A stretch of 64,000 bases of DNA from a virus (IMGVR_UViG_3300035497_000162:1-64000), one strand, 5' to 3'; positions 11,236 to 61,649 are shown, numbered from the stretch's first letter. The notes: a model not told the origin generated them from the sequence alone. Translations and numbers: made by a program.

Positions 11236-11786
11236 GAGATATAGAAGAAATATTAAAGGATAAAAGAATTAAAAATATTTGGAGAAATGTTCAAAATGAT
11301 AAAGCTATTCAATTAAAATTAGATGTTTATTCTGTATATAACAATAAAATAGCTTTAGCTAAATTTACTAAAGCTTTAGGTTGGGAACATTTAAGTATTT
11401 CATTTTCAGATGAAACTCCTTCTTGGGATTTTACTCAAGAAATGAAAGAATTATTTTGGAAGGATGATGAAGTTTGTTATCAGCTACATCCAACCAAAGA
11501 TAATTATATTAACAATGATGAACACTGTCTCCATTTATGGAAACCTATAGATGAAGAAATACCTTTACCTCCACCTATATTAGTTGGGTTTAGAAAAGGC
11601 CATGAAGAAGATAAAGCTATTCTTAAACAGGTACAAGAAGAATTAGGTAACCCTATGACTGATGAAGAAATAGATTTTATGTATCAAGTTTCCTTTAATA
11701 ATAAAGAAGAAATAGAAAAAATTATTGAAGGTTTAAGTCTAGAACAAGCAGTGAATTTACTCATTAATGGTAGATTTAACAAGTAA
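11232..11786 (+). CDS. conserved phage protein
   Basis: GWEHLSIS...PSWD...QLHP...HCLHLW motif common in phages. Confidence 0.65.
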   Translation: MRDIEEILKDKRIKNIWRNVQNDKAIQLKLDVYSVYNNKIALAKFTKALGWEHLSISFSDETPSWDFTQEMKELFWKDDEVCYQLHPTKDNYINNDEHCLHLWKPIDEEIPLPPPILVGFRKGHEEDKAILKQVQEELGNPMTDEEIDFMYQVSFNNKEEIEKIIEGLSLEQAVNLLINGRFNK

Positions 11787-11818
11787 CTAAACAGAATAAT
11801 AAAATTGTTAAAAATCTA

Positions 11819-11847
11819 TTTACATTAAATAATTATTGTGATATATT
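11819..11847 (+). promoter_or_regulatory. sigmaA-like promoter of guide cassette 1
   Basis: TTTACA-17 nt-TATATT with TG extension. Confidence 0.6.
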
Positions 11848-11859
11848 AAATATAATATT

Positions 11860-11929
11860 GAGGTAGTTTATACCTTTAAAGTACATCGTTACTCATATAG
11901 AGTTTAGGTGTAAAGTTATGTTATTTGAA
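11860..11929 (+). ncRNA. TnpB-type guide scaffold (omegaRNA/tracr-like), cassette 1
   Basis: GAGGTAGTTTATACCT hairpin, TACAT...GTGTA stem, anti-repeat TTATGTTATTT; conserved at five loci. Confidence 0.75.
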
Positions 11930-12139
11930 GTTTTATATGTATATAAAATAACATAGTAATAAAACGATGGCATTCTCATTTTTTCTAAGTTTTATATGTA
12001 TATAAAATAACATAGTAATAAAACTAAGTATCTTCTTCTCGTATGTTTTTCTATGTTTTACATGTATATTAAATAACATAGTAATAAACTTTTGAAAATA
12101 ATTAATATTATATATTAAAAATAACATAATAGTAAAAAC
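11930..12139 (+). CRISPR. mini CRISPR array 1: three 36-nt repeats plus a degenerate terminal copy
   Basis: GTTTTATATGTATATAAAATAACATAGTAATAAAAC at 11930-11965, 11989-12024 and variant 12055-12090; spacers 23 and 30 nt. Confidence 0.9.
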
Positions 12140-12208
12140 AAAGACTGGTTTAATAGCATAAAATAAATAGTAACTATCTATTATAAATTATAAATTATAA
12201 CTATAGAG

Positions 12209-12324
12209 TTGAGGTAGCAAAGTTCTTAATACTTATAATTTCAAAAACGAATTAATCGTTTACTTCTTTTAACCCTAACGATGACTCTCATTAAGAATAC
12301 TCAAAGTACGAGTAGCACTCGTAC
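12209..12324 (+). ncRNA. candidate structured RNA
   Basis: Nested inverted repeats TTGAG/CTCAA, TTCTTAAT/ATTAAGAA, ATCGTT/AACGAT, then hairpin GTACGAGT/ACTCGTAC. Confidence 0.35.
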
Positions 12325-12408
12325 AGCTTGTAAATATTTTGTTTAATAGATAGATACTTTTTCCCTATTAGTATCTATCTATTTTATTATTTTATAGGAG
12401 GTGACATT

Positions 12409-12738
12409 TTGAAATTAACAAGAGAAATAAAGAATTTAATTATTTATAATATAGTATCTGATAGTTTATTTAAGTTACATACAAGTCAGATGCTATTCCA
12501 GTGTGTATTAATTGCTATAGTGATAATATTTGATAATATCATAGTTTCTATATTTTTAGACTTAGATGAACAAGCAAAATTTATTATTACTATTATGAAT
12601 TTTATATTATCACTTATATCTATTATTAATACTACTGTATTTTCATATATTTGGAAAAAAAGTAATAAGAATTTATATAATTTTTTTGAAACATTAGAAA
12701 GAGTAGAAGAAGGAGAGGAGACAGAAGAAAATGATTAG
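12409..12738 (+). CDS. two-TM membrane protein
   Basis: Two hydrophobic segments; GGAGG RBS. Confidence 0.6.
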   Translation: MKLTREIKNLIIYNIVSDSLFKLHTSQMLFQCVLIAIVIIFDNIIVSIFLDLDEQAKFIITIMNFILSLISIINTTVFSYIWKKSNKNLYNFFETLERVEEGEETEEND

Positions 12739-12940
12739 AGAAGATTGTTTCGCTTATAATAGTGAACTTAATGAGTGTAATTGTTTAACTACTTTAGTAT
12801 GTAAAAAGAAAGATTGTTCTTTTTATACTAATAGAGAAGAGGTATCTTTAAAATCTATAGAAAATGCTATAAATGGATATTCAGCTAAGAGCCTTAAAAA
12901 ACTTAATAAAAGTGAGGACTACTATGAAGAAAACCAGTAA
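12731..12940 (+). CDS. small Cys-rich protein
   Basis: DCFAY...C.CL..L.C....CSFY motif. Confidence 0.6.
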   Translation: MIREDCFAYNSELNECNCLTTLVCKKKDCSFYTNREEVSLKSIENAINGYSAKSLKKLNKSEDYYEENQ

Positions 12941-13280: not shown

Positions 13281-13282
13281 TT

Positions 13283-14374: not shown

Positions 14375-14377
14375 TAC

Positions 14378-14459: not shown

Positions 14460-14475
14460 ATAAGGAGGATAAATA

Positions 14476-17934: not shown

Positions 17935-19959
17935 TTGGGTAAAGTTACAAGTGAATATAAAAGATGGGTACCTAAAGCTGCTCCATCAGAATTATTTCCA
18001 TATGCTTATACTCTAAAATGGATTAAAACTATAGATGAACTAAAAGAAATATTATCACAACCTACAGATTATATGGGTTTTGATACTGAAACTACAGGTC
18101 TTAATCAGGAAGAAATAGATATAGTAGGTTATTCTTTTTGCTTAGATGGAAAAATTGCTTACTACGTACCTGTAAATCATGATAGCTATAAACTAGGTTT
18201 AGAGTCTGTGGATTTAATTTATGAAAAAATGTGTAATACTAAAACAGTAGCTATGTTTAATATGCGATATGATGTTAGAGTACTAGAGTATATAGGTTAT
18301 AAAGAATTATTTAATCAGATACAAGAGAAAGACTATACAGAAGATTTTAATATCTTAGTAAATAAATATATTAGTTTAGGTAAAAAGTGTCCTTATTCTA
18401 ATTCTGATGAGCTTAAAGAAGCTAAAAAATTAGAGCTTAGTAATAGGGCGTTTTATAAGTACGATATGAGTAAAATCAATACCTATGATGTACAAGCTGT
18501 AGTTTATTTAGCTGATACTAATGTAAAATATCCTTCTTTAAAAGCTTCTGAAGAATGGTATCTAGGATGGAGAGGATCTTCATTTGAACAGACAGTATCT
18601 AATGCAGCTGATGAAAGAGCAGTTACTATGAAGAAAGATACTAAAACCGGAGAAATGGTAATTAAAGACATGAATTTCTATTACCTTACCCCAGAAGAAG
18701 CTTATGAATATGCTGCTATAGATGCTTTAGGTACTTATCTATTAGGAATAAAATGTAAACCTTTTTATGATGAAGCTAAAACTTCAGGATGGTTAGATGT
18801 AAACTGTCTAATGCCTTTAACTAGGTTTGAAAACGAGCTTACCCTAATAGATACGAATAGACTAAAACAATATAGTGATAGATTATCTAAAAATATACAA
18901 GATTGCGAAAATAGATGTTGGACTACTGCTGGTAAAGAATTTAATCTAGGTAGTAATAAAGAAACCAATGAAGTACTAAAATCATTAAATATTCATACCG
19001 GTATAGTCACTAAAAGAGGTGAAATGTCTACTAGTAAAGAAGCTATAAAGGGCTGTTTGGATAAACTAGATAAGAATGACCCAGCTAGACAGTTTTTACA
19101 AGATTTAACTAATTATGGTACTTATACTAAACAAAAATCTTCATACATTGATAATATTATAGAAATGTGTGAATCTAATAAACATCATAAAAATAGGCTT
19201 AGATTTAGTTATAAAACTACAGAAGTACCATCTGGTAGACTTGCTGCTGGAGGTGATAAGAAAAATCAATTCTTTGCAAATTGCAATATTCAAAACATTA
19301 CAAAGCCTCATGTAACTAATCATTATAGTATTACTGAAGAACAATGTAAAAAATATTATCCAGATGTATGGGAAGCTTTAGATAATTCAGGTACTAGAGA
19401 AGAATGTAGTACTCCATTATATTATTATGACAAAGAAAAATTAAATAAATATCTTATAGATGCTGGTATAGATATAGCTAATTATAAAATAGAAGGTAAT
19501 AGATGGAGTTATAGAATTTATGGATATGTATTTTCAGAACAACCTTGGATTATCCCTGAAGAAGAACTAGTAGTAGAAGGATTTATTCAAGACTTAAATA
19601 TAAGAAGTTGTTTTTTACCAGATGATGATTATTACTGGGTAAGTTGTGTAGATACTAATTCTATTGTTGAAATTGAAACTGGAGAAAAAGTACCTATATC
19701 ATTTTTTAATAATATAGAAAATAGAAACAATCATAAAATTAAGAGCTTAAATACATACCATAAGGTAGAGCACTACTTCGATAAAGGTCAACAAAATAAA
19801 TGTATATTAAAAACTAAATTAGGTAAATCTTTAAATTGCACCAAAGACCATAGATTTTATGTACTTGACGAAGATGGAGAACTTTTACTTAAAACTTTTT
19901 CCGAATTAAACATTGACGACTACATAATATCTATAGAGGAGGATGAAAATAATGAATAA
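17935..19959 (+). CDS. polA: DNA polymerase A, N-terminal part (3'-5' exonuclease, thumb) ending in N-half of a split intein
   Basis: GFDTETTG, FNMRYD, YAAIDA, FNLGS, SGRL, NIQNI, IRSCFLP. Confidence 0.9.
   Translation: MGKVTSEYKRWVPKAAPSELFPYAYTLKWIKTIDELKEILSQPTDYMGFDTETTGLNQEEIDIVGYSFCLDGKIAYYVPVNHDSYKLGLESVDLIYEKMCNTKTVAMFNMRYDVRVLEYIGYKELFNQIQEKDYTEDFNILVNKYISLGKKCPYSNSDELKEAKKLELSNRAFYKYDMSKINTYDVQAVVYLADTNVKYPSLKASEEWYLGWRGSSFEQTVSNAADERAVTMKKDTKTGEMVIKDMNFYYLTPEEAYEYAAIDALGTYLLGIKCKPFYDEAKTSGWLDVNCLMPLTRFENELTLIDTNRLKQYSDRLSKNIQDCENRCWTTAGKEFNLGSNKETNEVLKSLNIHTGIVTKRGEMSTSKEAIKGCLDKLDKNDPARQFLQDLTNYGTYTKQKSSYIDNIIEMCESNKHHKNRLRFSYKTTEVPSGRLAAGGDKKNQFFANCNIQNITKPHVTNHYSITEEQCKKYYPDVWEALDNSGTREECSTPLYYYDKEKLNKYLIDAGIDIANYKIEGNRWSYRIYGYVFSEQPWIIPEEELVVEGFIQDLNIRSCFLPDDDYYWVSCVDTNSIVEIETGEKVPISFFNNIENRNNHKIKSLNTYHKVEHYFDKGQQNKCILKTKLGKSLNCTKDHRFYVLDEDGELLLKTFSELNIDDYIISIEEDENNE
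19645..19956 (+). mobile_element. split intein N-fragment (about 104 aa)
   Basis: Starts CVDTNSIV after YWVS, block B CTKDHRFY, acidic tail EEDENNE-stop. Confidence 0.85.
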
Positions 19960-21088
19960 ATTAAGTAATTTAGATTTTGATAATTATTTAAATGAATTTA
20001 ATATGATACATAATTCTAATTTAATTAGGTTAGAAGAATATAAAGATATACACACTAAATTAGCTATATTAAATAAAGATTATAATTATAAATTTAATCT
20101 CTCATTAAAAGAGCTTAAAAATGCTTTAAAAAATAATAGTGAATTATGTAAGGCAAAACCCTGTCACCATAAAAATTGTAGTTACTCTAAATGTATACAT
20201 CAAGAAGCTTGGGATAATTTTTCTCTTATAAAGAATATATATATAACTTCTAATAATTCACAACAGGAAATAGCAGACTTATTACATATTAGTAAGGAAC
20301 AGGCTCATCACATAATGACTGAGTTAGATTTATTTAATTTATATGGTAAAGATAGGAAACAAAACAAATACTATAAAACTTATTGCTATAATCCATTCTA
20401 TGAATTAGATAGACCTGAAATAAATTGGTTACTAGGTTATATTATGTCTGATGGGAATATTAATATTAGAAACGATAGACAGATTAAAACATTAAATATA
20501 ACTTCAGTAGACCTAGAATTGATTGAATACTGTTGCGATTTATTTAAATTAGATAAAAAACAGATTAAACCAACTTATAATAAAACACTTTGCTATAGGT
20601 TAGATATACCAGATAATAATATCTGTGATAGACTTCTAGAGCTAGGAATAAAACCTAGAAAATCCTATATTGAAACTACTGAAATTAAATTTAATCCATA
20701 CTATAAATTTGACTTTTTACGAGGCCTTTTTGATGGTGATGGCTGTGCATCAAATGGAAATTTTAGTGTTGTAGGTCACCCTTCTTATATAAAATGGCTA
20801 CATGATAACTTCTTTAACTTCACTAGGTTTTATTATAAAACAGGCTCTAAATTAGCATCTATGGAAGTCAGTTCAATACCAAAACTAGTATTTTTATATA
20901 ATAAAATGTATTATAACGATACTGTTCCATGCTTATCTAGAAAGAGAACTAAACTAAAATCAAAAATTAAAGGCCTTAAACTAGATAAAGTCTCAGATTT
21001 AATTTATACTGATGAAATTATTCCAGTATGTGATATTACAGTTCAAGGAGTACATACATTCAATGTAAATGATATTTGGACTAAAAAT
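19952..21088 (+). mobile_element. LAGLIDADG endonuclease fused to split-intein C-fragment
   Basis: WLLGYIMSDG, FLRGLFDGDG; ends VCDITVQGVHTFNVNDIWTKN before extein Cys. Confidence 0.85.
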
Positions 21089-33966: not shown

Positions 33967-34257
33967 ATGAAAAAACATAAAATTAATAATTTAGAGCTAA
34001 GAGTATCTGAAGGATTCAATAGTAAATTTAAATATTTAGAGATAGTAGAATGGTCTAATGACTTTGACCATTGTTGGACTATAATTACTTATAAATATGA
34101 TGAGGACTGTGACTGCTATGAATTAAATAGTTGTGGTGATAGACTAAATGACAATAGAATAGACTGGTATGACTTAGGCTGTTTAGTAAAACTTGGATAT
34201 ACTTGGCTAAAAGATAAAGATTTATTTTCTATAAATAAGGAGGAAGATAATGAATAG
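33967..34257 (+). CDS. hypothetical protein
   Basis: ORF with AAGGAGG RBS. Confidence 0.6.
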   Translation: MKKHKINNLELRVSEGFNSKFKYLEIVEWSNDFDHCWTIITYKYDEDCDCYELNSCGDRLNDNRIDWYDLGCLVKLGYTWLKDKDLFSINKEEDNE

Positions 34258-34786
34258 AATATTATATACTAGTGATTTACACTTTGGTCATTATAATATT
34301 ATAAAATATGAGGATAGACCTTTTACAACACTAGATGATATGACTCAAGGATTAATATATAGATGGAATAAAAAAGTAGATACTAATGATACTGTTTATA
34401 TATTAGGAGATTTTGCTTTCATATCTGGAAAATTACCTACTTTAGAAGTTAATAAAATACTCGGTAAATTAAATGGAGAAAAACATCTTATAGTAGGTAA
34501 CCACGATACTTGGATAAATAAAAAATTATTCAACCCTAGAATGTTTGAAAGCATTAATTATTATTTAGAAATTAAAGATAAAAATAGAGATGTAGTACTT
34601 TGTCACTATCCCTTAGAAAGCTGGAATGGAATGAGATATGGTACTATACATCTACATGGTCATCTACATAGTATTCCAACTAAATTAAATCTACAAAATA
34701 GATATAATGTTGGTTGTGATAATTGGAACTATGAACCTGTTACTTTAGATGAGATTATACAATCTAAAAGAGATTATAATATTTAA
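34250..34786 (+). CDS. calcineurin-like metallophosphoesterase
   Basis: SDLHFGH, LGDF, GNHD, HGHLH. Confidence 0.9.
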   Translation: MNRILYTSDLHFGHYNIIKYEDRPFTTLDDMTQGLIYRWNKKVDTNDTVYILGDFAFISGKLPTLEVNKILGKLNGEKHLIVGNHDTWINKKLFNPRMFESINYYLEIKDKNRDVVLCHYPLESWNGMRYGTIHLHGHLHSIPTKLNLQNRYNVGCDNWNYEPVTLDEIIQSKRDYNI

Positions 34787-34844
34787 AAACTAAAAACAAT
34801 CATAAATATATCTACGAAACATTATAATAAGGAGTGATTAATTT

Positions 34845-38220: not shown

Positions 38221-38400
38221 ATGTTCAAAACTAAAAAACAATTAATAGAATCTAATCAAGATATGTTATTCTATAAAACTCAGATAAGTTTAATAGAACA
38301 AGTTCTTAGAGAAGCAAAAGAAACTAATGAAAATCCTTACATCACAATAAGAAAAATTAGAGATAAAGTATATAAATTTTAAAAACTAGATATTATTCTG

Positions 38401-38429
38401 TTTACATTTTTAAAAACTAGGTATATAAT
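38401..38429 (+). promoter_or_regulatory. sigmaA-like promoter
   Basis: TTTACA-17 nt-TATAAT. Confidence 0.65.
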
Positions 38430-38470
38430 TGAATAAATATTATATATTATATTAGAGGAGCTGATTAACT

Positions 38471-38860
38471 ATGAATTTATACACTCTACTTAAAGAAGAT
38501 TCTATATTAAATGAATTTAAGGATAGAATTACTGAAAAGGTTCATTATTCACAAAATTTAATAGATACTTATTTATTAGTGGATGATACCGATGAAGAAT
38601 ACCTTGAAACTTTATCTAAATTATATAATGTATTAGATGAACTTAGTTTAGATTTTAAAAATGTTGGATATGATTATGACCCAGAAGTAGTTCCTGATGT
38701 AGAAGAAGGTGTATTTAGAAATACTCTATCTAAATTTAAAGAACAACTATCTTACATGCTAAATCATTTTAGCGAAGATCTATTCACTAGTGTTAGTACA
38801 GAGATACGATATACTATGAACCTAATAGATGTACATAAAACTAATTTTATAAAAATATAA
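38471..38860 (+). CDS. acidic protein (LxE leader family)
   Basis: LLKED, ILNE at the N-terminus. Confidence 0.5.
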   Translation: MNLYTLLKEDSILNEFKDRITEKVHYSQNLIDTYLLVDDTDEEYLETLSKLYNVLDELSLDFKNVGYDYDPEVVPDVEEGVFRNTLSKFKEQLSYMLNHFSEDLFTSVSTEIRYTMNLIDVHKTNFIKI

Positions 38861-38874
38861 AAGGAGGATTAATT

Positions 38875-39645
38875 ATGAAAAGTAATACTATAGATTTTGT
38901 TAATTCAATTGAGAAATTCAATAACATAACTAAACCAAAAAGAAAACTTACTGAAGCTGAGGAAAATCCAAGTATTAAATTATTTATGAATACTTGGGGA
39001 AACTATAATACTAATGGTGCTGATACTGATTCCATTAAAGGTGGTTGGATGACCCCAGATAAAGCTTTAGTTTGGTGGGAAGAGATGAATAAAGCAGGTG
39101 AAGAACCTTTTATAAACGACGTAGACGATGAAATAGGTTTACCTTTTGAAATAGGTGAAAATGATTACTTACCTGATGTTGTTGATAAAATAAATTTCTA
39201 CATAAATTTAGATGATTATGATATGGAAGTATTTAGTGCTATTATGGAAGCTATGGGTACAGATGATTTTGATGAGGCTAAAGATACTTTTGAAAGTGAT
39301 GATTTCCAATACTTCTCAGGAGTTACAAATGATAAAGAGCTAGGTGAAGCTTATGTAGATGTTTATGGTATGGATGGCATTCCAAATCTAGAAATTTATT
39401 TTGATTATGAAGAACTTGGTAGAGATTTAAGTATTGAATATTATCAAGAAGATGAAGATATGCCTGAAACTGCTGCTGAATATTATACAGGGGATGAAAA
39501 TTCTACTGATCATGAAATAGGCGAAGCCTATGTAGAAATGAATGGTATATCAAATATAGAAAACTATTTTGATTATAAGGCACTTGGTAGAGATTTAAGT
39601 CTTAATGGTCAATACACAGATAAAGGATTTATTTTTATTTATTAA
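38875..39645 (+). CDS. ardA: ArdA-family antirestriction protein with basic N-terminal leader ending KLTEA
   Basis: NTWGNYN..G....GGW, two YFDY..LGRDL motifs, strongly acidic. Confidence 0.8.
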   Translation: MKSNTIDFVNSIEKFNNITKPKRKLTEAEENPSIKLFMNTWGNYNTNGADTDSIKGGWMTPDKALVWWEEMNKAGEEPFINDVDDEIGLPFEIGENDYLPDVVDKINFYINLDDYDMEVFSAIMEAMGTDDFDEAKDTFESDDFQYFSGVTNDKELGEAYVDVYGMDGIPNLEIYFDYEELGRDLSIEYYQEDEDMPETAAEYYTGDENSTDHEIGEAYVEMNGISNIENYFDYKALGRDLSLNGQYTDKGFIFIY

Positions 39646-39668
39646 TATAATGAAAGAAGGATTTAACT

Positions 39669-39977
39669 ATGAAATTTATTGATGACGAAAATAATGAAAA
39701 CAGACTATTATCTAAATACTCTCTAGGACAATTAGATAATATTATTAGAAACAATTTTGTAAATTGTCAAATGTATCAATTAATAGAAGGAGGAACTTCT
39801 ATTAAAATAATATTTAATGAAACTATCAAAATATATAAAATTATAATAAATGATAATGGAGATTTAGAAGCTTATGAAGTTACATCTACAGGTGAAAAAA
39901 TAGGAGATTGTTTTATTTTATATAGTAAACCTAAAACACATTATATAAATGATGATTTCTATGATTACAATATATAA
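39669..39977 (+). CDS. hypothetical protein
   Basis: ORF. Confidence 0.5.
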   Translation: MKFIDDENNENRLLSKYSLGQLDNIIRNNFVNCQMYQLIEGGTSIKIIFNETIKIYKIIINDNGDLEAYEVTSTGEKIGDCFILYSKPKTHYINDDFYDYNI

Positions 39978-40070
39978 AATATTACACCTTATTTATATAT
40001 ACTAATAGTAGAATAATTCTTGGATTAATTCTACTTAGTTTTATATATCCATTATTTTAACAGTGGAATA

Positions 40071-40102
40071 AAAGGAGGGAATAAAACCTCCTTTTATTTT
40101 TT
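40071..40102 (+). terminator. intrinsic terminator
   Basis: AAAGGAGG / CCTCCTTT hairpin followed by T-run. Confidence 0.65.
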
Positions 40103-40130
40103 GCATAATATAAATAAGAGGTGATTTTAA

Positions 40131-40676
40131 TTGAATAATATAGAGCATATTTATAATACTATGAAAGACGTTACTAATAAGACTCCGGTACTTTTAGTTG
40201 GAGGTGCTATGTTTATCTTCAAAAAAATGTACAGAGGTAATATTTATAGACTAGAAAATACTGACGATGCCAAAGATTTTATAGAGCGTTTTTATAATAT
40301 AGAATATAATAAACCTATAGTAGTAGAAGATATATCTCTACTATATAGAGATACTATACTCCTTAAATTAGTCGAAGAAATAAAATTACCATTAATTTTA
40401 TTAGCTTCTGAGGATAATATTAGTAATACATTACAAAGTAGGATTAAAACTTATATCAAATATCCTGTAAATGAAATTAAATGTTCTTATAATAAAATTC
40501 TAGAATCATTAGATTATATCAATCAAAATGATTTATCTAGTAAAGATTTAGATATTTATATATCTAATAACTGCCCAGAATTAGCTAGATTAAACCATAA
40601 AATGAAACTTAGAAAAAATAAAGATAAATTACAACAAATATTAGGTAGTATCATAGATAATAAGTCAAAAACATAG
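40131..40676 (+). CDS. clamp-loader-like subunit (delta-prime-like degenerate AAA+)
   Basis: VVED...LLKLVEE..LILLAS...TLQSR. Confidence 0.6.
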   Translation: MNNIEHIYNTMKDVTNKTPVLLVGGAMFIFKKMYRGNIYRLENTDDAKDFIERFYNIEYNKPIVVEDISLLYRDTILLKLVEEIKLPLILLASEDNISNTLQSRIKTYIKYPVNEIKCSYNKILESLDYINQNDLSSKDLDIYISNNCPELARLNHKMKLRKNKDKLQQILGSIIDNKSKT

Positions 40677-40703
40677 ACAGAATAATAAAATTGTTAAAAT
40701 CTA

Positions 40704-40732
40704 TTTACATTTTTAACAATATATAATATAAT
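40704..40732 (+). promoter_or_regulatory. sigmaA-like promoter for cassette 4 and tnpB
   Basis: TTTACA-17 nt-TATAAT; inverted repeat TTGTTAAAA/TTTTAACAA. Confidence 0.7.
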
Positions 40733-40745
40733 TAAATATAATATT

Positions 40746-40848
40746 GAGGTAGTTTATACCTTTTAAGTACATCATTACTCATATAGAGCTTAGATGTAAA
40801 ATAACATAGTAATAAAACAACGGCTTAAAAGTTTAGAACTATACTAGA
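40746..40848 (+). ncRNA. guide cassette 4: scaffold lacking the anti-repeat, half repeat (ends 40818) and putative spacer
   Basis: GAGGTAGTTTATACCT...GATGTAAAATAACATAGTAATAAAAC then unique sequence. Confidence 0.7.
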
Positions 40849-40881
40849 TAACGTAATATTATTAGAATGTGAGGTACGATT

Positions 40882-42126
40882 ATGAAATTAGTACATAAAA
40901 AACTATTAGCTTATAAAGTTAGACTATATCCTAATAAAGAGCAAAGAGAATTTATTAATGGTCAATTAGAAACTTGTAGAATATGCTATAATGAAATGCT
41001 TAATAAATATAATGAAGATTATAAAGCATTTAAAGAAGGATTAATTGACGAAAAACCTAACTTAAATTTTAAATATGGCTGGATAAAAGAAAAATATCCT
41101 TGGATGAAAAAATATAATAGCTCACCATTAGATTTTACAGCTAGAAATTTACAAGAGGCTTTTATTAAATATTATGATAATTTTAACCCAAAAGATCCTA
41201 GCTTAGGTAAACCTCAATTTAAAAAGAAGTATAAATTAAATTCTTTTAAATTAAAAAAGGTTCAATTAAAAAATCTAGAGCTTAATTCTTTTGAAATTTC
41301 TAAGTTAAAAAATAAAATAAAATTTATAAATCATAGAAATTTTGATATTTCTAATACTAATAGTATATCTATTATAAAATCTAAATCAGATAAATATTTC
41401 GCAGTATTTTATTTGGAACAAGATTTATTCCCTAAGCTAGATTGTGAACCTAATAACAAAACTATAGCTATAGATTTAGGCGTTAGAAAATATTTTACTT
41501 GGATAGATTCTGAAGGAAACCAAGGTATTATTGAAAATCCTAAAGCTTATAAAGATGAAATGAAACGTATTATATTTTTAGATAAAGTACTAAAACGTAA
41601 AAAGAACGCACACAATAAAAGATATAATTTAAATCATAACGATGGACATATTGAAGAAATACATAAATACTCTAATAGGTACCAAAGAGTTAGAATACAA
41701 AGAGCTAAACATTATGAACATTTAGCTAATATTAGAACCAATTTCTTAAATAACCTTACTACTAAACTAGTAAAAGAATATAATAAAATTATAATAGAAG
41801 ATTGTAGAGTTACTGAACTAATAGATAAAACTACTAAAGAATTTAAGAATAAATCTAGACAAGCTAGAAAGAATATACATAAAGCTCAATATGATGTTGG
41901 TTGGTATAACTTTAGATTAATGCTAGAATATAAATGTAAACTTAATAATAGAGAATTAATAATAGCTGATGAATTTTATAGGTCTACTCAAGAATGTAGT
42001 AATTGTGGTTATATTAATAAAGAGCTAGAAGATGTTAATATTAGAGAATGGACTTGTCCTGAATGTAACACTTATCATGATAGAGATATAAATGCTTGTG
42101 AAAATTTAATGAAAAGATATAATTAA
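40882..42126 (+). CDS. tnpB: RNA-guided nuclease TnpB/Cas12f-like, 414 aa, RuvC triad intact
   Basis: AYKVRLYPNKEQ N-terminus, GKPQFKKK, AIDLG (RuvC-I), IIIED (RuvC-II), CSNCG..CPEC, HDRDINA (RuvC-III). Confidence 0.93.
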   Translation: MKLVHKKLLAYKVRLYPNKEQREFINGQLETCRICYNEMLNKYNEDYKAFKEGLIDEKPNLNFKYGWIKEKYPWMKKYNSSPLDFTARNLQEAFIKYYDNFNPKDPSLGKPQFKKKYKLNSFKLKKVQLKNLELNSFEISKLKNKIKFINHRNFDISNTNSISIIKSKSDKYFAVFYLEQDLFPKLDCEPNNKTIAIDLGVRKYFTWIDSEGNQGIIENPKAYKDEMKRIIFLDKVLKRKKNAHNKRYNLNHNDGHIEEIHKYSNRYQRVRIQRAKHYEHLANIRTNFLNNLTTKLVKEYNKIIIEDCRVTELIDKTTKEFKNKSRQARKNIHKAQYDVGWYNFRLMLEYKCKLNNRELIIADEFYRSTQECSNCGYINKELEDVNIREWTCPECNTYHDRDINACENLMKRYN

Positions 42127-42136
42127 ATATAATATT

Positions 42137-42223
42137 GAGGTAGTTTATACCTTTTAAGTACATCATTACTTTTAATGGAGTTTAGGTGTAAAATTATGTT
42201 ATTATATAACATAGTAATAAAAC
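42137..42223 (+). ncRNA. natural single-guide scaffold (87 nt) immediately 3' of tnpB, cassette 5
   Basis: Same fused architecture as cassette 3; begins 10 nt after the tnpB stop. Confidence 0.8.
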
Positions 42224-42280
42224 GTGGCAAGTACTATCGTATTTCAGGTATTTATTTTATATATAACATAGTAATAAAAC
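42205..42280 (+). CRISPR. mini array 5: half repeat, 30-nt spacer, shortened repeat
   Basis: Spacer GTGGCAAGTACTATCGTATTTCAGGTATTT (42224-42253); repeat ATTTTATATATAACATAGTAATAAAAC (42254-42280). Confidence 0.8.
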
Positions 42281-42327
42281 TAATCATCTTTTCTATATTG
42301 CATATTATATAATAAGAGGTGTAATAT

Positions 42328-42999
42328 ATGTTAAACATAATAAATCATAGTGTTAGAACAAATGATATAGGATTAATTCAATTTATGTACCCTAGTTACA
42401 TTATAATAGATAAACCACCAATTTATTCTGATAAACCTATATTATTTGTTGGAGAAACTAAATATGTTAATAAGATTAAAGAGCTAAATGTTAATTACAT
42501 TATAGTATCTCAAGTAGGAGAAATAGATCTTACAGATAGATTAACTTTATTACAAGTAGCTTTTAGTAAATATAATAAGAATATACCTAAATATTTATTA
42601 TCTTTTTATAACGATTTAGATGATAATACTTTTATGGAATTATTTAAACAGTATTGGATTACTGGAAAGTGGAATCTTAAATCGTATGATAATACTGGTG
42701 CTTTTTTAGAGTTCCTTTATAGTTTTAAGACAGATACTTTCACTATGGCTAAAACTTACTTAGAATTGTTAAATAAAGTAGGTGCTGAATATATAGAAAT
42801 GAGCTTACTTACATTTTTAAATAGAGTAGTAAATACAAGCGGTAATCTATCTAAATGGTACATGAAACTTATAAATGATTATAAATATAGTAAATATAAC
42901 TTAATAGAACCAGCTTTAGAAAAATATATGTCTACTAAAGTATATAATTCAGAGCTTAGAATTTTTAATTTAATACTAGACTTAAATAGGAGAACTTAA
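42328..42999 (+). CDS. hypothetical protein, possible second clamp-loader subunit
   Basis: ORF; position next to 40131 once the tnpB cassette is removed. Confidence 0.5.
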   Translation: MLNIINHSVRTNDIGLIQFMYPSYIIIDKPPIYSDKPILFVGETKYVNKIKELNVNYIIVSQVGEIDLTDRLTLLQVAFSKYNKNIPKYLLSFYNDLDDNTFMELFKQYWITGKWNLKSYDNTGAFLEFLYSFKTDTFTMAKTYLELLNKVGAEYIEMSLLTFLNRVVNTSGNLSKWYMKLINDYKYSKYNLIEPALEKYMSTKVYNSELRIFNLILDLNRRT

Positions 43000-43089
43000 T
43001 AAAGATTAAGTTCTCTTTATTATATTTATTTACATTTAATTTATTTATATAAATAGGAGCTAAAAATAGTAATTTTAGGAGGAATTTAT

Positions 43090-43371
43090 ATGGAAAAGAT
43101 TAAATGCCCAGAATTTAGAGTAAAAAAAGATACTGATACTAAATCATTAGCATCTGCTATTTTTACAAACATTAAAACTGTAGACAAAATAGAATTGAAG
43201 TGTATTGGTATACCTGCTGTAAATCAAGCTGTAAAAGCTGTAATTATAGCTAGAGGATTATCAGCACCTACTGGGTTTGATATAATTATAAAACCTTATT
43301 TTGATATGATTTCAATACAAGGTGAAGAAAAAACAGCAGTAGGAATGATATTAGAAAAAATAAACTTTTAG
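43090..43371 (+). CDS. spoVS: stage V sporulation protein S family
   Basis: SLASAI...IG..AVNQAVKA.IIARG..AP.G.D...P.F..I.I.GEEKTA. Confidence 0.88.
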   Translation: MEKIKCPEFRVKKDTDTKSLASAIFTNIKTVDKIELKCIGIPAVNQAVKAVIIARGLSAPTGFDIIIKPYFDMISIQGEEKTAVGMILEKINF

Positions 43372-43384
43372 GAGGTAATGTTTA

Positions 43385-45835
43385 ATGTTAAACAAATTAA
43401 GTTTTAATTTAATGAATTCACTAAACGAAAGTGAAACAAAAACTTATCAAGTTAAAAAGAAAGTAATAGTAGAAAGTACCGGAACTAAAACTATAGTTGA
43501 AGAAGTACAAAAACCAAAAATATCTCAAGAAGCTAAAGATTCATTTACATCTTTAAAAGATATAATAGAAAATGATGATAACAAAATAAATGTAAATGGG
43601 TTTTGGTTATCAGATAAAGCAGTAGCAATAATTAAGAGTTCAAATACAAACTTTCATCTAAATAGTTATATGAATTTAAATATATCAGATATAATAAATA
43701 TGGTTAAAGATAATGATACTATTGAACAAGCTATAGATGAATTATATACAGATTATGATAGTAATAGTGCTTATTCGTGGGCAGAAAACTTTATATCAGT
43801 ATTAGAGAATTTAAATTTTGATATTGAAAATAATATAGTAGAAAGTACTAGAACTAAAACTATAACTAATGAAAGTAAAGAAAATAAAGAAGATCTTAAA
43901 GTAAAAACATATCACATGGAAGATTTAGGTGGTAATACAATGGCAGTATTCGGTCAATTAGAAAATGGTTTATATTTTGCAGGTAACGAAGATGGAATTC
44001 GTATTTATGATATAGACACGTGGCCATATCATGAAGGAGATGGAGATAAAGAATTTGTAGATTGGTACAAATTAGAAAATGAACATAATATTGAAGATTA
44101 TGAATATGGAGATAAAGAATTCAAAGACATAATGTTACAAACAGGATTTAAAGATGAAGATTACTTCAATACTAGTTACTATAATGATGATGAATTAGAT
44201 GAATCCGTAGACCAAGATATAGAAAATGCTAAAAAAGATTCCATAGAAAAAGGTTTATACTCAGAAGCTGATGAATCAATTGGAACATTAAACGTAGAAT
44301 TAAACACAGATGTATTACCTTTAGTAGATGTAAATATGTACTCAATGGATAGTTTTATTAGTGACTATGATATAACGTTAGAAGAGTTAGATGATGTAAC
44401 AAAAGAAAAAGCAACCCCTTTCATTGAAAAGTCAATAAAAGAAATACTACCTAGTGCAAATATAGAATCAACAAAAGTATATCATCCAAAAGAGTACAAC
44501 TATTCTGGAGATGAACTAGAATTCACATTATCATTTGATAAATCAGAATATGAAGCATTAAAAGAAAAAACATTAAACAATAAAAACTTCGATAAATTTC
44601 TAAAAGATAATTACGCATCTACTAGTAACTTTATATCTAATATGGCAGACAATAAAAAGGATTTTGAAACACAGGAGGAGTGGAAACAAGTAGCACAAGT
44701 TATAATGTTTAATATCCCAGAAGGAACTATTAACAATAATAACGAAGCCTATATAAACGATTTTGTTGATTATGTAAGTGGTAATTTTCAAGAAATTAGT
44801 GGTTTAGATGAAGCTGATGAATCAACTGAAACAGTAGAAAATACAAATACTGTTGATGAATTTGAAAATATGGAAGAAAGTTATTTCTTAGAATATTTAG
44901 CAGCTATGCTAGGAATAGAGGAAGAAGATATATTTGATGCAGAAAGTCGAGCATCTAATATAGTATCTAATTGGGGTGAACCTTTAGAGTACGATGAAAC
45001 CACCGGATATAGTTTAAATGTAATAGATGGGTCTAAAATAGAAGGTTGTAAACCAGTAAAAGCTTATTATATAGTAATTGATCAAGATGAAAATGAAGGT
45101 GGCGATTATGCCTATGAATTATTTGATAATGAAAAAGAAGCAAGGGATAATGAAAAAGAAGCAAGGGATAAATACAATGCTTTAACAAACAAAATAGAAG
45201 AATCTTCTTTAACTGAAGCTAAATTAACAGACTATTTAGGAATAATGCAAATTAAAGACTTACTAAATAAAAACAAAAAAACTGCTAATAAAGAGTTTGC
45301 AATAGTCGATAATATGGAAATACAAGTAGGTAAAGGCAAAGATGCTAAAGTATACAAAGCAATTAAAAATGATGATGGTGAATGGGAATTAGAATTTATT
45401 AAGAATTTTTATGAGTCAGCATTAACTGGAGCTGATGAATCTTGTAAATCTTTAAAAGAAGATACCAATAGAGTAAAAGTATCATTTTATGTAGATACAA
45501 ACCAAACTCCTAAAGAAGAAATACAAGCTAAATTAGAAAATTTACTCGCTAATTCTGGATTAGCTTCTACTAAAGAAGATATAGAAATAGAAGATGATTT
45601 AGATGAAAATTGTAAATCTCTAGAAGAAGATACTAAGGAAATGGAAGTCAATAAATCTAATGTAATAAAAAGTCAAGGTAATATTCACATGATAGAAGCT
45701 GATGGTCAATATATAGTAGGTGAAGATTATAATTCAGATACTAAAGAATTAGCTAATGCTGAAGTATATGAGGATAAAGAAGCAGCAGACGTAGATTACT
45801 TAAATAGATGTGAAATTAGTACATCAAATAAATAA
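43385..45835 (+). CDS. large acidic modular putative internal head protein
   Basis: SLNES, IVES, LDES, ADES, LTEA, LKED linkers. Confidence 0.6.
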   Translation: MLNKLSFNLMNSLNESETKTYQVKKKVIVESTGTKTIVEEVQKPKISQEAKDSFTSLKDIIENDDNKINVNGFWLSDKAVAIIKSSNTNFHLNSYMNLNISDIINMVKDNDTIEQAIDELYTDYDSNSAYSWAENFISVLENLNFDIENNIVESTRTKTITNESKENKEDLKVKTYHMEDLGGNTMAVFGQLENGLYFAGNEDGIRIYDIDTWPYHEGDGDKEFVDWYKLENEHNIEDYEYGDKEFKDIMLQTGFKDEDYFNTSYYNDDELDESVDQDIENAKKDSIEKGLYSEADESIGTLNVELNTDVLPLVDVNMYSMDSFISDYDITLEELDDVTKEKATPFIEKSIKEILPSANIESTKVYHPKEYNYSGDELEFTLSFDKSEYEALKEKTLNNKNFDKFLKDNYASTSNFISNMADNKKDFETQEEWKQVAQVIMFNIPEGTINNNNEAYINDFVDYVSGNFQEISGLDEADESTETVENTNTVDEFENMEESYFLEYLAAMLGIEEEDIFDAESRASNIVSNWGEPLEYDETTGYSLNVIDGSKIEGCKPVKAYYIVIDQDENEGGDYAYELFDNEKEARDNEKEARDKYNALTNKIEESSLTEAKLTDYLGIMQIKDLLNKNKKTANKEFAIVDNMEIQVGKGKDAKVYKAIKNDDGEWELEFIKNFYESALTGADESCKSLKEDTNRVKVSFYVDTNQTPKEEIQAKLENLLANSGLASTKEDIEIEDDLDENCKSLEEDTKEMEVNKSNVIKSQGNIHMIEADGQYIVGEDYNSDTKELANAEVYEDKEAADVDYLNRCEISTSNK

Positions 45836-51058: not shown

Positions 51059-51505
51059 ATGATTACATACGAAAATGAAGAAATGGCAATTTCAATTCTT
51101 AGTTATTCATACCCAAATATACAAAGTCAAAAACTATCTATAGAAGAAGTTAAGGAACTACTAAAAGGTAAAAGTATAGCTTTAAGTCTACAGGATAATA
51201 ATATTTTAGTTTTATCATTAGATAGCTCTAGTAAAAATATTAGTTTCGGTGAAGCTATCGAAGAATTAAAGAAAGGTAAAAAAGTAGCTAGAAGGGGTTG
51301 GAATGGTAAAGATCAATATATTGAATTAGCTACTTGTATTAGTTACAAAAATAATAAAGATGAAGTTATAAATCCAAACCACTATAATATAGGTAATAAA
51401 GCAATAGCATTTGTTGGAACATCAGGGGTTCAATTAGGATGGTTAGCAAGTCAAGCTGATATGTTAGCAGAGGATTGGTATGTAAAGGAGGAAAATAATG
51501 GGTAA
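51059..51505 (+). CDS. DUF2829 / Tad2-like (Thoeris anti-defence 2) domain protein
   Basis: SFGEAIE.LK.GKKVAR.GWNGK...GWLASQADMLAEDW. Confidence 0.8.
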   Translation: MITYENEEMAISILSYSYPNIQSQKLSIEEVKELLKGKSIALSLQDNNILVLSLDSSSKNISFGEAIEELKKGKKVARRGWNGKDQYIELATCISYKNNKDEVINPNHYNIGNKAIAFVGTSGVQLGWLASQADMLAEDWYVKEENNG

Positions 51506-56086: not shown

Positions 56087-56087
56087 T

Positions 56088-57471: not shown

Positions 57472-57576
57472 CGTTCAAAAAAATACCTGACTCGTTCAAA
57501 AAAATACCTGACTCGTTCAAAAAAATACCTGACTCGTTCAAAAAAATACCTGACTCGTTCAAAAAAATACCTGACT
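57472..57576. repeat. five perfect 21-bp iterons; putative replication origin
   Basis: CGTTCAAAAAAATACCTGACT x5, followed by AT-rich tract and hairpins CCGAGTC/GACTCGG and GTGGGAGC/GCTCCCAC. Confidence 0.85.
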
Positions 57577-57960
57577 CAAAAATTTTGTGTCTTGTAATCT
57601 TAGGGAGATAAGGCTTTCAAGACTTCTTATGCTTCCGTATAAATAATATTATAAATATATATTATAAATAAAAATTATAAAGAGTGGTTATACCGAGTCG
57701 AGACTCGGATTTTTTTCACTTCTTCTTTTTCTTTTATTTTTCATTAAAATAAAATGAGTGGGAGCTTCGCTCCCACGAAAAGAATTAGTTAGAAATTAAA
57801 AATATAAAATTAAACTTTTAAAGTTAAACTTTTAAAGTTAATAGCATAATATAAATAAAGAGGTTTATTAAAATTAAAACGATGATTGTGGCGTGATATA
57901 TAAACTTTATAGTAAAGTTTTACTATCAAATAAAAATAAAGAATAAAGGAGATTACAATT

Positions 57961-58755: not shown

Positions 58756-58773
58756 TTTTAGATATACGAAATT

Positions 58774-58862: not shown

Positions 58863-58909
58863 ATACTTTATAAAAAATAAACATATTATAATTATAAGGA
58901 GATGATATT

Positions 58910-60226
58910 ATGGCAAAAGAAATAAAATCTATAGAAGATTTATCTTCTGAGTTTAATTTATGGAATGAAGAGCCAAAAATAGTGAAATTAAAAAATCCAA
59001 TATTAAATGGAATGTTTCATGGAGGATTACCTCTAGGTAGTGTTATACAAATAGCTGCTCAATCTGGAGTAGGTAAATCTACTTTAGCTATACAAATTTC
59101 TAAGGAACTGTGTGAACTTGGATATAAAGTATCTTATATAGATGCAGAAAAGGGTTTAAACGTAAACATGTTAAAATCTACTGGTATTTATAAATTCGTA
59201 CATAGTAAAAATAATCCAGATGGAACTTTTTCTATACTTAGAATAAATGATTGTACCCAAGTAAACCTTGCTATACAACAGTTAAGTAATAATAAATTAG
59301 TAGATGTAGTAATACTAGATAGTTTAGGTTCATTAGATTCTGGTTTATATAAAGAAGGTGGAGTAGAAGCTGATAATCCTAAAGTAGGAGCTGATACTAA
59401 AAGTTTAAAGATTATTATGAAAACTATGAATTCTATGGCTATAAGTAATAATACTACTTTTATTTTTATAAATCATTTAGCTCAGTCTATAGGTACTTAT
59501 ATACCTACAGAAAGCCCTACAGGGGGTAGAGCCCCTATTTATCTTTCTGACATTATAATAAAGCTAACTAAAAAATCTAGTGATTTTGAAAAATTAAGAC
59601 TAGGACAGAAAGTAGAATATGAAGCTATGAAATCTAGATTTGGTCCTGGAAAGTCTAAAATGCCTTTTTATATTTTCTATGGCCAAGGTATTTGTTTAGC
59701 TCCTACTTATCGAGAATTTATAGACCAAGTAGATACTATTTATAAAGGTAAACCTCATAAATTAGTAGAATTAAGAGGTGCTGGTAACGGCTCTATGTTT
59801 ATTAATGATGAAGAAGTTAAATTTAGAGGCGAAAACCAACTTATGAATTTAATAGGTAAAAATTTAAAAGAAATTATGAGGATTGTTCCAGAAGATGTAT
59901 TTATTGTAAAACCTCCAGAATTACCTGATTATATAAAGTCTAGTATAGATACTGAAAAAGCTGTTTATAATGAATTAGAATTACCAGATAAATTTAAAGA
60001 TTTAGAAATATTATATAGTAGTGGTACTAAAGTATATTTTCATAAAGGAATAGATCCTACAGGTCAAGAATATAGTTTATCTTATGATATAGCTAAGGAT
60101 AAACTAATACTAAATATGGATGGTATAGAAGATACTATTAAATCTCCTAGTAAAGAAGATTATAATAGTAATTTAGAAGTACTTAATAATTATTTGGATA
60201 AAACTAAAAAAGAAATGGAGTCTTAG
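58910..60226 (+). CDS. recA: RecA/UvsX-like recombinase
   Basis: GGLPLG, AQSGVGKST, YIDAE, ILDSL, IFINH, PTGGRA. Confidence 0.88.
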   Translation: MAKEIKSIEDLSSEFNLWNEEPKIVKLKNPILNGMFHGGLPLGSVIQIAAQSGVGKSTLAIQISKELCELGYKVSYIDAEKGLNVNMLKSTGIYKFVHSKNNPDGTFSILRINDCTQVNLAIQQLSNNKLVDVVILDSLGSLDSGLYKEGGVEADNPKVGADTKSLKIIMKTMNSMAISNNTTFIFINHLAQSIGTYIPTESPTGGRAPIYLSDIIIKLTKKSSDFEKLRLGQKVEYEAMKSRFGPGKSKMPFYIFYGQGICLAPTYREFIDQVDTIYKGKPHKLVELRGAGNGSMFINDEEVKFRGENQLMNLIGKNLKEIMRIVPEDVFIVKPPELPDYIKSSIDTEKAVYNELELPDKFKDLEILYSSGTKVYFHKGIDPTGQEYSLSYDIAKDKLILNMDGIEDTIKSPSKEDYNSNLEVLNNYLDKTKKEMES

Positions 60227-60257
60227 AATTATAATTTAGATATATGAAATTTTAATC

Positions 60258-60338
60258 AGAATGAAGATATAGACATTTTAATATTAAAGTAATGAAATTA
60301 TATTACTTAGTATATAAAGCGTCTTAAAATTCATTCTA
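60258..60338. repeat. palindromic element copy
   Basis: Differs from 14378-14459 at only a few positions; followed by the same TAAGGAG RBS. Confidence 0.85.
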
Positions 60339-60352
60339 ATAAGGAGTAATTT

Positions 60353-61540
60353 ATGAATTTTAAAGTAAACATAAAAGATTATCAAATTATCAAAAAAGCA
60401 TCTTTAGAGTTTATACCAGGGCTTAATGTAATAGTAGGTCCTAGTAATAATGGAAAATCTAGTATTTTGAAAGCTATAAAAGCTTGTATTTATACTGTAC
60501 CTGGAGCTAATCCTATTAGGGCAGGACAAAATCAATACTTAGTAGGTATAGAATATAATGGTCATACTGTAATATTACAAAAAGGACTTAAAGAGTCCGT
60601 TTATATAGTAGATGGAGAAAAGTATACTAAATATGGAACTACTACTCCAAAGGTTGTATCAGATGCTTTAGGTTTAAAGGAGTTAGTATTAAATAATAAT
60701 AAAGAAATATTAAATTATTGGAATCAGATGGATTATCCTTTTTTAATAGACAGAACTTCAGTGGAGTTATTTAGGTTTATAGTAGACTCTGGAGAAAATG
60801 ATAGAGTATCAGATGCTTTAAAAAGCATGGTATCTGATAGGCAGTCTATTTCAAAAGATATTAATTTAATTCAAGGTGGTATAGATACTGTAGACTTAGA
60901 AATTAAGTCTTATAAGGACAAATTAGATAAATCTAAAGAAATTATTGATACGTGTAATAGTATTATAAAATTACAACCTTTGGTAGCTAAATTAAACTTA
61001 ATGAAAAATATTAAGGAGTCTTGCTCTAAAATATTATCAGATTTATCTAAAACAAATGAAGAATTAGTTAAAAAATCTAATATTTTAGATATTTATACTA
61101 ATTTCAATAAATCTATTACAGGAAATAATAATAAATATTGTGCTTTAGTAGATAAATTTAATATATTACGTTCTATTATAGAAAATTTATCTACTGTAGA
61201 ATCTAAAATTAATTCATTAAAAATTATTTTAAGCTTATCTTCAATAGACACATCAGGATTAAATTTAAGGAAAGAAATTTTAAATAAGATAAATTATATT
61301 AATAATGAATTAAAATCTCTTAAATCTCAACCTAGTGCTAAATTTGATATATCTAATGATACTATTGAAAGGTATTTTAATTTAAAAAATATAAAAGATA
61401 AATTAATAGATTTTGATAATCAAAAAATAAGATTAGAAGATAGTAAATTAAATTGTGATAATAGCATAGAATTATATAAGGAATTAAAATTACTTTTTGA
61501 TTTTTGCCCTTATTGTGGTAGTGGGCTATCAACTACCTAA
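60353..61540 (+). CDS. SbcC/Rad50-like ATPase, N-terminal half
   Basis: GPSNNGKSS Walker A, Q-loop, coiled coil, CPYCG zinc hook. Confidence 0.85.
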   Translation: MNFKVNIKDYQIIKKASLEFIPGLNVIVGPSNNGKSSILKAIKACIYTVPGANPIRAGQNQYLVGIEYNGHTVILQKGLKESVYIVDGEKYTKYGTTTPKVVSDALGLKELVLNNNKEILNYWNQMDYPFLIDRTSVELFRFIVDSGENDRVSDALKSMVSDRQSISKDINLIQGGIDTVDLEIKSYKDKLDKSKEIIDTCNSIIKLQPLVAKLNLMKNIKESCSKILSDLSKTNEELVKKSNILDIYTNFNKSITGNNNKYCALVDKFNILRSIIENLSTVESKINSLKIILSLSSIDTSGLNLRKEILNKINYINNELKSLKSQPSAKFDISNDTIERYFNLKNIKDKLIDFDNQKIRLEDSKLNCDNSIELYKELKLLFDFCPYCGSGLSTT

Positions 61541-61577
61541 AGGAAAGAACAAAGAATTTAAATCACTAGGGTTTGAA

Positions 61578-61610
61578 TTAAATGAAGTGGTTTATACCTT
61601 GTAATAAAAC
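61578..61610 (+). repeat. minimal guide-scaffold remnant
   Basis: TTAAATGAAGTGGTTTATACCTT joined directly to repeat end GTAATAAAAC. Confidence 0.6.
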
Positions 61611-61649
61611 TATTGCGGTAATGAACTTTATTAAAAGAAAGGAGATATT

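Follow-up and report, generated by a model that had tools for sequence, protein, structure and literature searches.

A TnpB-like nuclease gene and scattered scaffold-array cassettes suggest a dispersed TranC-type system in a phage genome

The stretch IMGVR_UViG_3300035497_000162:1-64000 (the window) comprises the opening 64 kb of a virus record that is 119,730 bp long, so that window coordinates are also record coordinates. It carries a single tnpB-like gene, for a predicted RNA-guided nuclease, and several copies of a short RNA scaffold element, each followed by its own small set of repeats and spacers of the kind found in CRISPR arrays. From the sequence we consider it likely that these parts form a domesticated, non-mobile, TnpB-derived type V-like (TranC-type) system with multiplied and scattered guide-RNA genes. 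A preliminary description of this DNA had proposed one nuclease served in trans by many self-contained units, and this is the reading that best fits the single tnpB, the roughly ten units now found and the pairing between anti-repeat and repeat. It is further backed by a scaffold homologue directly after tnpB in three diverged phage lineages. The record has a CheckV completeness of 94% and a G+C content of ~25%, with nearly all open reading frames (ORFs) of at least 100 amino acids (aa) on the + strand.

Scaffold copies were located by repeat finding, by direct reading and with a covariance model (A1, R1) built from the copies. The conserved element is ~70 nt long, and after each copy comes a 36-nt repeat or its 3' half, and then unique spacers of 23-31 nt. 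The five scaffold starts given in the preliminary description (11860, 26137, 28871, 40746 and 42137) were all recovered by R1 at 70-97 bits: four of them score 86-97 bits (E about 1e-13 to 1e-15), and the one at 40746 scores 70 bits because its anti-repeat is absent. A covariance-model scan of the full phage genome had been suggested as a check; it found these five full copies in the window, and pattern searches of the whole virus record added five further cassettes beyond it (cassettes 6-10, at 71855, 75668, 76573, 76867 and 89991). The repertoire is hence distributed, as had been claimed, but the earlier count of five cassettes over 50 kb was too low: the genome holds ~10 cassettes, with 23 repeats or repeat halves and ~24 spacer units, all on the + strand and spanning 78 kb. 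Rfam gave zero matches in the window and tRNAs only in the outer cassette regions, and neither the scaffold nor the repeat had an exact match in the viral contigs scanned.

Cassette 1 consists of a scaffold at 11860-11929 (stem 1, stem 2 and anti-repeat; R1 96.7 bits, with a supporting fold) and a mini-array at 11930-12139, delimited by direct reading and repeat finding. Its repeats lie at 11930-11965, 11989-12024 and 12055-12089 (decayed), followed by a decayed half repeat at 12120-12139; the spacers are 23 and 30 nt long, plus a third unit of ~30 nt. Cassette 2 has its scaffold at 26137-26206 (R1 92.4 bits, fold) and a mini-array at 26207-26409 with three 36-nt repeats and two 30-nt spacers, ending in a 15-nt unit and a decayed half repeat. 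In cassette 3, scaffold and repeat half form a natural single guide at 28871-28956 (R1 93.7 bits; fold -19.7 kcal/mol, z -2.9), with a downstream part at 28957-29021 read directly as a 29-nt spacer (28957-28985) and one decayed repeat (28986-29021). Cassette 4, situated in the 5' leader of tnpB, is a scaffold that lacks the 13 nt of the anti-repeat and is fused to the 3' half of a repeat (40746-40818, R1 70 bits); a 16-nt sequence follows it at 40819-40834. Cassette 5 begins 11 nt after the tnpB stop codon, which is the position of an omega RNA, and comprises a natural single-guide scaffold at 42137-42223 (R1 85.8 bits; fold -20 kcal/mol, z -2.75) and, by direct reading, a spacer of ~31 nt with a 5'-truncated repeat at 42224-42280. 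The six repeat-bounded spacers reported earlier are thus present with their lengths of 23, 30, 30, 30, 29 and 30-31 nt. Terminal repeats are decayed in cassettes 1, 2, 3 and 9. In cassette 10 the first two spacers share their last 12 nt (genome 90097-90189), and this points to a partial duplication or to related sites as the source of both.

Two remnants had also been proposed, and they fared differently. The one at 27986-28021, directly 3' of a helicase gene (26529-27977), is the first scaffold hairpin only, and R1 recovers it weakly (24.9 bits, E 0.06). The other, at 61584-61610, could be a collapsed cassette in which a diverged first hairpin is joined to the last 10 nt of a repeat; it matches a 15-nt scaffold pattern loosely, with two mismatches, and is not found by R1, so that we regard it as plausible but weak. 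This site and cassette 10 have a common 21-nt upstream element.

The scaffold is predicted to fold into three stems, with z values from -2.1 to -3.9 for the copies of this phage. Stem 1 is the 6-bp first hairpin, stem 2 is capped by a small apical stem, and in stem 3 the 3' anti-repeat of the scaffold pairs with the 3' half of the 36-nt repeat; this last pairing is predicted in every copy that has an anti-repeat, and cassette 4 folds without it. Aligned together with two sister-phage scaffolds, 93.8% of the pair cells are paired and five pairs are changed on both sides, compared to 31-62% paired in controls with a slid register. Stems 1 and 2 covary, and compensatory changes set copies apart at the small stem that caps stem 2 (cassettes 5 and 8); such changes support the three-stem fold. 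In the sister lineage the anti-repeat region of the scaffold differs in step with its repeat, as read by eye. The copies come in two forms: in cassettes 3 and 5 a 3-nt loop joins the anti-repeat to the repeat half, giving the natural single guide of about 86 nt, and in the remaining cassettes the loop is the 5' half of the repeat.

The tnpB-like gene (40882-42126, + strand) encodes a protein of 414 aa, identified by Pfam and by its match to ISDra2 TnpB, whose nuclease activity is predicted from its sequence. Three Pfam domains lie above the cut-off (HTH_OrfB_IS605, OrfB_IS605 and Cas12f1-like_TNB), and ISDra2 TnpB (8h1j) is a full-length match with an E value of 1e-32. The protein has the HTH/WED-REC part, the split RuvC D-E-D triad and the zinc-finger insertion of the TnpB superfamily; among relatives, neither the triad (D198, E306 and D402) nor any of the four zinc-finger cysteines varies. 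It also stands in the setting expected of type V-U* and TranC effectors: cassette 5 lies directly downstream on the same strand, as the sister arrays do behind their own tnpB, the scaffold contains a tracrRNA-like anti-repeat by fold prediction, and spacers turn over, as seen in the sister phages. The genome has exactly one gene of the TnpB family, and a Y1 transposase (Y1_Tnp, TnpA), a serine recombinase (Resolvase), Cas1 and Cas2 were not found in it.

Several other identities were tried and rejected. An IS200/IS605 OMEGA transposon or PATE does not agree with the lack of a transposase, the single tnpB and the fixed gene neighbourhood in sister phages; nor is there the one omega RNA of such elements, as repeat-spacer units follow the scaffold and the scaffold recurs ~10 times. 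TldR was discarded on the intact and invariant RuvC triad, and Cas12p or Cas12r on differences in size and RNA.

We compared the locus with its closest relatives. A set of 5.8 billion proteins contains just two clusters near the phage TnpB, at 54% and 52% identity. The sister phages that carry them, on contigs of up to ~127 kb, were read over ~20 kb each (10 kb on either side of tnpB), and they have the same tnpB neighbourhood, in which the gene stands between an ArdA-like region and a 224-aa ORF, with SpoVS next after that ORF. In both sister lineages a homologous scaffold comes after the tnpB stop codon, followed by a single array of 5-9 repeats of 36 nt; every sister locus that reaches past the scaffold has this adjacent array, and no second scaffold was found within 10 kb on either side of sister tnpB. 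The preliminary description had considered the case of spacers being invariant between strains. In sister phages this is not so: strains sharing one 90%-identity TnpB cluster have wholly different spacer sets, and in one pair of strains the scaffold-proximal spacer differs, the fourth spacer having a single base change besides. These arrays conserve a short trailer unit; its first 16 nt, which form the short spacer at their trailer end, equal the sequence that follows cassette 4 in our phage. By sequence comparison, the sister arrays behave as live CRISPR arrays in which the scaffold end is the leader.

Because the sister loci show tnpB with one scaffold and one array, the comparison suggests that this arrangement is ancestral and that the dispersed layout is derived. 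The scattered copies appear to derive from the tnpB-proximal unit, since cassettes 3, 4 and 5 share 20-25 nt that form the 3' end of tnpB. No array accompanies the remoter TnpB relatives (34-38% identical), of which at least one is on a phage contig, and no recognisable scaffold homology was seen downstream of the gene in a non-CRISPR phage relative (L030). The TnpB relatives in IMG/VR are 27-31% identical over their full length, with one 43-residue fragment at 56%, and the scaffold is absent from every one of them that has downstream DNA. It was also not found in a related 126-kb phage in the region around the clamp-loader gene (L046), to which the scan of that phage was confined. One scaffold-like match, in L040 at 1063, was rejected as a chance match inside a coding region. 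One sample variant (L032) has a 28-bp deletion somewhere within window 34521-44394 and is otherwise identical; gene calls suggest that the deletion splits a 223-aa ORF (window 42328-42999) just downstream of cassette 5.

Two of the 24 spacers match the genome of the phage itself at 28 of 30 positions, compared with a control of 480 shuffled spacers in which the best match never had fewer than four mismatches. Cassette 6 has one spacer, and its match (site 71192, ~660 bp before the cassette start) is in the adjacent upstream gene (genome 70640-71812); the two differences, at guide positions 2 and 3, lie within the same codon. For cassette 9, it is the third spacer (genome 77102-77131) that matches 33969-33998 on the + strand of the window, covering the start of ORF 33967-34257, and here both differences are synonymous. 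As two spacers come this close to phage genes and shuffled ones never do, the matches suggest that both were taken from orthologous genes of a close relative and would target sister alleles. For the 390-aa protein of the cassette 6 target gene, no relative was found in IMG/VR, and the best homologue anywhere is 46% identical. The sister spacers of 30-31 nt have no match in this genome.

The preliminary description had also assigned own promoters to cassettes 1, 3 and 4. Part of this holds: hexamer pairs spaced by 17-18 nt are found upstream of all three, which also share an upstream block of 60-69 nt resembling blocks before ordinary genes (families D9, D11 and D12). In cassette 1 the promoter-like site (11819-11847, + strand) agrees with 10 of 12 consensus positions, with a 17-nt spacer and a TG extension, and lies within a 60-nt block identical to that upstream of cassette 3. 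Cassette 3 has two overlapping promoter-like sites in the shared block (28814-28852, + strand), and cassette 4 has two overlapping sites at 40704-40742 (+ strand; 11 of 12 positions each), which probably drive tnpB as well. Promoter-like matches are nonetheless not above shuffle expectation in this AT-rich DNA, and for cassette 2 no such site of its own was found. Terminator-like hairpins end cassettes 3, 9 and 10; the one closing cassette 3 carries a U run (29058-29102, + strand; fold z -3.9), and none of 200 shuffles was as stable.

The outer cassettes have a different context. The phage has four tRNA genes, all of them within 75.6-76.9 kb, and cassettes 7-9 are interleaved with them. Cassette 7 takes up the interval from tRNA-Thr to tRNA-Gln, with a scaffold that starts 6 nt past tRNA-Thr and a 29-nt spacer that runs exactly up to the start of tRNA-Gln. 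Cassette 9 begins 3 nt after tRNA-Cys. The units of this cluster may rely on tRNA processing instead of a promoter of their own. After the last repeat of cassette 8 stands the 3' half of a tRNA (T-arm and acceptor; genome 76744-76781) with no 5' half nearby, which could be either a tRNA gene broken on arrival of the cassette or a spacer against a tRNA gene.

From these features we propose the following model. Transcription of each cassette would yield a scaffold of ~70 nt, and the anti-repeat at its 3' end would pair with the 3' half of the next 36-nt repeat; because of this pairing, the first spacer of each cassette would be served in cis and form a natural single guide whose guide part is 3'-terminal. 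Later spacers in a cassette would need a scaffold in trans, which any copy could provide, and guides adjoining tRNAs would be trimmed by tRNA processing. Loaded with these guides, the one 414-aa nuclease would cleave DNA that matches them, most likely in co-infecting sister phages or other mobile elements, and alleles of the phage itself would escape cutting through mismatches or an absent flanking motif. New spacers would presumably be added by an adaptation module of the host, because the phage has none.

Some of the data weigh against this model. Searching spacers for targets, as the preliminary description had recommended, gave the two near-matches in the phage's own genes but neither an external protospacer nor a shared 5' flank: cassette 9 and 10 spacers have chance-level matches only in a collection of cultured phages, own and sister spacers have no protospacer in ~0.3 Mb of fetched related phage DNA, and the two self-like sites show no obvious common 5' flank (n=2). 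Other samples carry the identical strain only, and spacer turnover was seen in the sister phages. The derived origin of the dispersal rests on sister neighbourhoods of 20 kb. Lastly, some units may be inactive, since cassette 4 lacks its anti-repeat and several terminal repeats are decayed.

A broader alternative is that recombination has spread duplicates of the cassette which, at distal positions, are mostly inactive, and that only the tnpB-proximal unit works. The decayed ends of cassettes 1, 2, 3 and 9, the loss of stem 3 in cassette 4 and the two remnants would agree with it, but the distal scaffolds outscore the tnpB-proximal ones (92-97 vs 70-86 bits), stem 2 shows compensatory changes in its apical stem (cassettes 5 and 8), and it is the distal cassettes that hold most of the spacers, together with promoter-like and terminator-like signals of their own. 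We judge this alternative improbable. A more credible one, although still clearly less probable than the model above, is RNA-guided intronless homing, with every cassette behaving selfishly: its guide would cut the sister allele of a nearby gene, and repair templated by this phage would copy the cassette and its flanks into the rival. Such movement would explain why scattered cassettes adjoin so many different genes; the position of the cassette 6 target immediately upstream of its cassette has the right geometry, and free-standing homing endonucleases of T-even phages act in this way, one of them in a tRNA gene region (PMC13565253). Cassettes moving by recombination are also expected to share short flanks, and short upstream flanks common to cassettes were found, some of which take in the final bases of ORFs that are unrelated (families D7 and D20). 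However, only one of the 24 spacers has this geometry, the self-like spacer of cassette 9 matches 43 kb away, and no sister genome with the targeted allele was found, its closest homologue being the 46% identical protein mentioned above. An elaboration of the same idea, in which the cassettes are autonomous single-guide homing units and some are excised via the flanking tRNAs by RNase P and RNase Z of the host, strikes us as slightly less probable again. As a separate observation, related phages of ~128 kb have free-standing GIY-YIG (SegE-like) and NUMOD3 homing-endonuclease genes in their replication module (L047 1-435, L048 321-1118 and L050 417-1109), so that protein-guided homing is common in this phage group.

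Two further explanations would change the partner or the outcome of the guides. The mini-arrays could exploit a CRISPR effector of the host and not the phage TnpB: many viruses bear mini-arrays with host-type repeats against related viruses (PMC11656645), and repeats of 36 nt with spacers of 30 nt recall type II-A arrays. Moreover, of the eight cassettes whose first repeat is full, five have a leader ending in the trinucleotide conserved at type II leader ends (PMC7999890). Sister-phage leaders end in other trinucleotides, though, and the data agree only in part with a leader end that mimics a type II leader-anchoring site. The scaffold and anti-repeat travel with tnpB in three lineages and have diverged alongside it, and the spacer stands 3' of the repeat, as in type V. 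In addition, no bacterial or archaeal genome in the collection has the repeat's 3' 15-mer twice at array spacing, nor does any metagenome contig, although this is a weak test. Use of a host effector is for these reasons very unlikely in our estimation. We give marginally less credence still to guides that regulate the phage's own genes by binding without cutting, like TldR and Cas12m. One spacer does overlap the start codon region of ORF 33967-34257, with two mismatches, and cassette 4 within the tnpB leader would allow feedback; but the RuvC triad is intact and invariant in the clade, unlike that of TldR, just two of 24 spacers resemble the phage's own DNA, and spacer turnover between sister strains misfits fixed regulatory targets.

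The dispersed TranC-type system, which we continue to favor, can be set against those already described. TranC (transposon-CRISPR intermediate) comprises TnpB-size effectors with a tracrRNA and CRISPR arrays that are active nucleases (Jin et al. Cell 2025, summarised in PMC13565253), and CauTranC9 is an active phage-borne member of TranC clade 9, whose mean length is 414 aa (bioRxiv 10.64898/2026.03.27.714800). The likeness extends to a 414-aa effector resembling ISDra2 TnpB, the absence of cas1 and cas2, a tailed-phage genome, the proposal of phage targets and the splitting of an omega or right-end RNA into a tracr-like scaffold and CRISPR repeats. Published TranC systems, however, have one effector and one array (in clade 9, five repeats of 38 bp), whereas here ~10 scaffolds are each fused to a mini-array of their own with 36-nt repeats across 78 kb, and fused single-guide and split forms stand side by side. 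LaTranC (9jfo) aligns to the phage TnpB over the C-terminal third only (E 5e-16); clade 9 was compared by description, and agrees in length and phage origin but not in repeat length (36 vs 38). Type V-U* systems (V-U6 to V-U45, Altae-Tran et al. 2023, PMC10691335) likewise pair a TnpB-like protein with a downstream array and lack further cas genes; for many of them metagenomes are the sole source, and a half repeat re-fused with the tracrRNA has been described (PMC10691335), but that work does not describe a dispersed multi-scaffold layout. On sequence grounds, then, the phage system fits the operational description of TranC and V-U* variants (PMC13565253, PMC10691335) and would operate as a tracrRNA-dependent type V effector.

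Other relatives are further removed. IS200/IS605 TnpB with its omega RNA (ISDra2; PMC8612924) gives the best full-length match, with the same domain set and catalytic triad, an RNA scaffold starting at the 3' end of the gene and the guide 3' of the scaffold. The phage locus differs in having no TnpA, no transposon ends and a fixed syntenic position in three phage lineages, in CRISPR repeats and variable spacers that replace flanking DNA, and in a scaffold of only about 70-88 nt. Virus-borne mini-arrays (PMC11656645) also hold one to four spacers each, some resembling genes of close relatives, but they borrow a host effector and host-type repeats; this phage brings its own nuclease, and a scaffold for each array. 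Cas12r of Thermus Lalka phages (bioRxiv 10.64898/2026.04.20.719267) and the Cas12 hacker Cas12p (bioRxiv 10.1101/2025.01.20.633832) are similarly phage-encoded without adaptation genes and have been proposed to act in mobile-element conflicts. Cas12r, however, uses a CRISPR RNA only, from a single locus, Cas12p has 500-700 aa, a 185-nt tracrRNA and a need for thioredoxin, and neither has dispersed scaffold-array units. The kind of system is thus one already published in 2025-26, and the scattered layout appears to be new: multiplied and scattered scaffold-array units, coexisting fused and split forms, and a guide framed by tRNAs were not found described in the literature searched.

The window contains further features. 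Upstream of tnpB lies a likely counter-defence cluster (34845-39645) with a C5 methylase, an N6/N4 methylase and an ArdA-like protein, and a Tad2-like protein is encoded downstream (51059-51505). A family A DNA polymerase gene is apparently interrupted (17935-22321): its first ORF ends in an intein splicing domain, and domains of the intein and LAGLIDADG endonuclease types occur in the following ORF. The coding sequence of an N6/N4 DNA methylase is spread across two frames (28035-28785); the N-terminal part, from 28035, stops just past an arginine codon near 28185, and from about 28180 the remainder is read in the following frame, the start of the listed ORF being 28228. At 57472-57577, in an intergenic position, a 21-nt unit stands in five perfect copies in tandem, which look like iterons or a protein-binding array. 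An intergenic element of ~89 nt occurs in six copies that are 63-98% identical (family D2; 1562, 14379, 55835, 56706, 58781 and 60258), each just upstream of a gene start, and probably serves another temporal class as a common regulatory or promoter module. Finally, ORF 142-1278 contains about seven tandem units of 72 nt (24 aa) and looks like a repeat protein.

Provided that its cassettes are active, the phage would have an RNA-guided nuclease organised as many small, separately transcribed helper-plus-guide genes in place of a lone tracrRNA and a lone array. Fused (omega-like) and split (tracrRNA plus CRISPR RNA) forms would then coexist in one genome, which is the transition to type V proposed for TranC, and the 414-aa nuclease would come with a compact natural single guide of about 86 nt and with a natural case of a guide framed by tRNA genes. 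The system would further provide a testable model of RNA-guided competition or homing between phages. Should the cassettes in fact be homing units, they would parallel, in nature, the engineered tRNA-guide arrays and would connect transposon homing with CRISPR in a living system.

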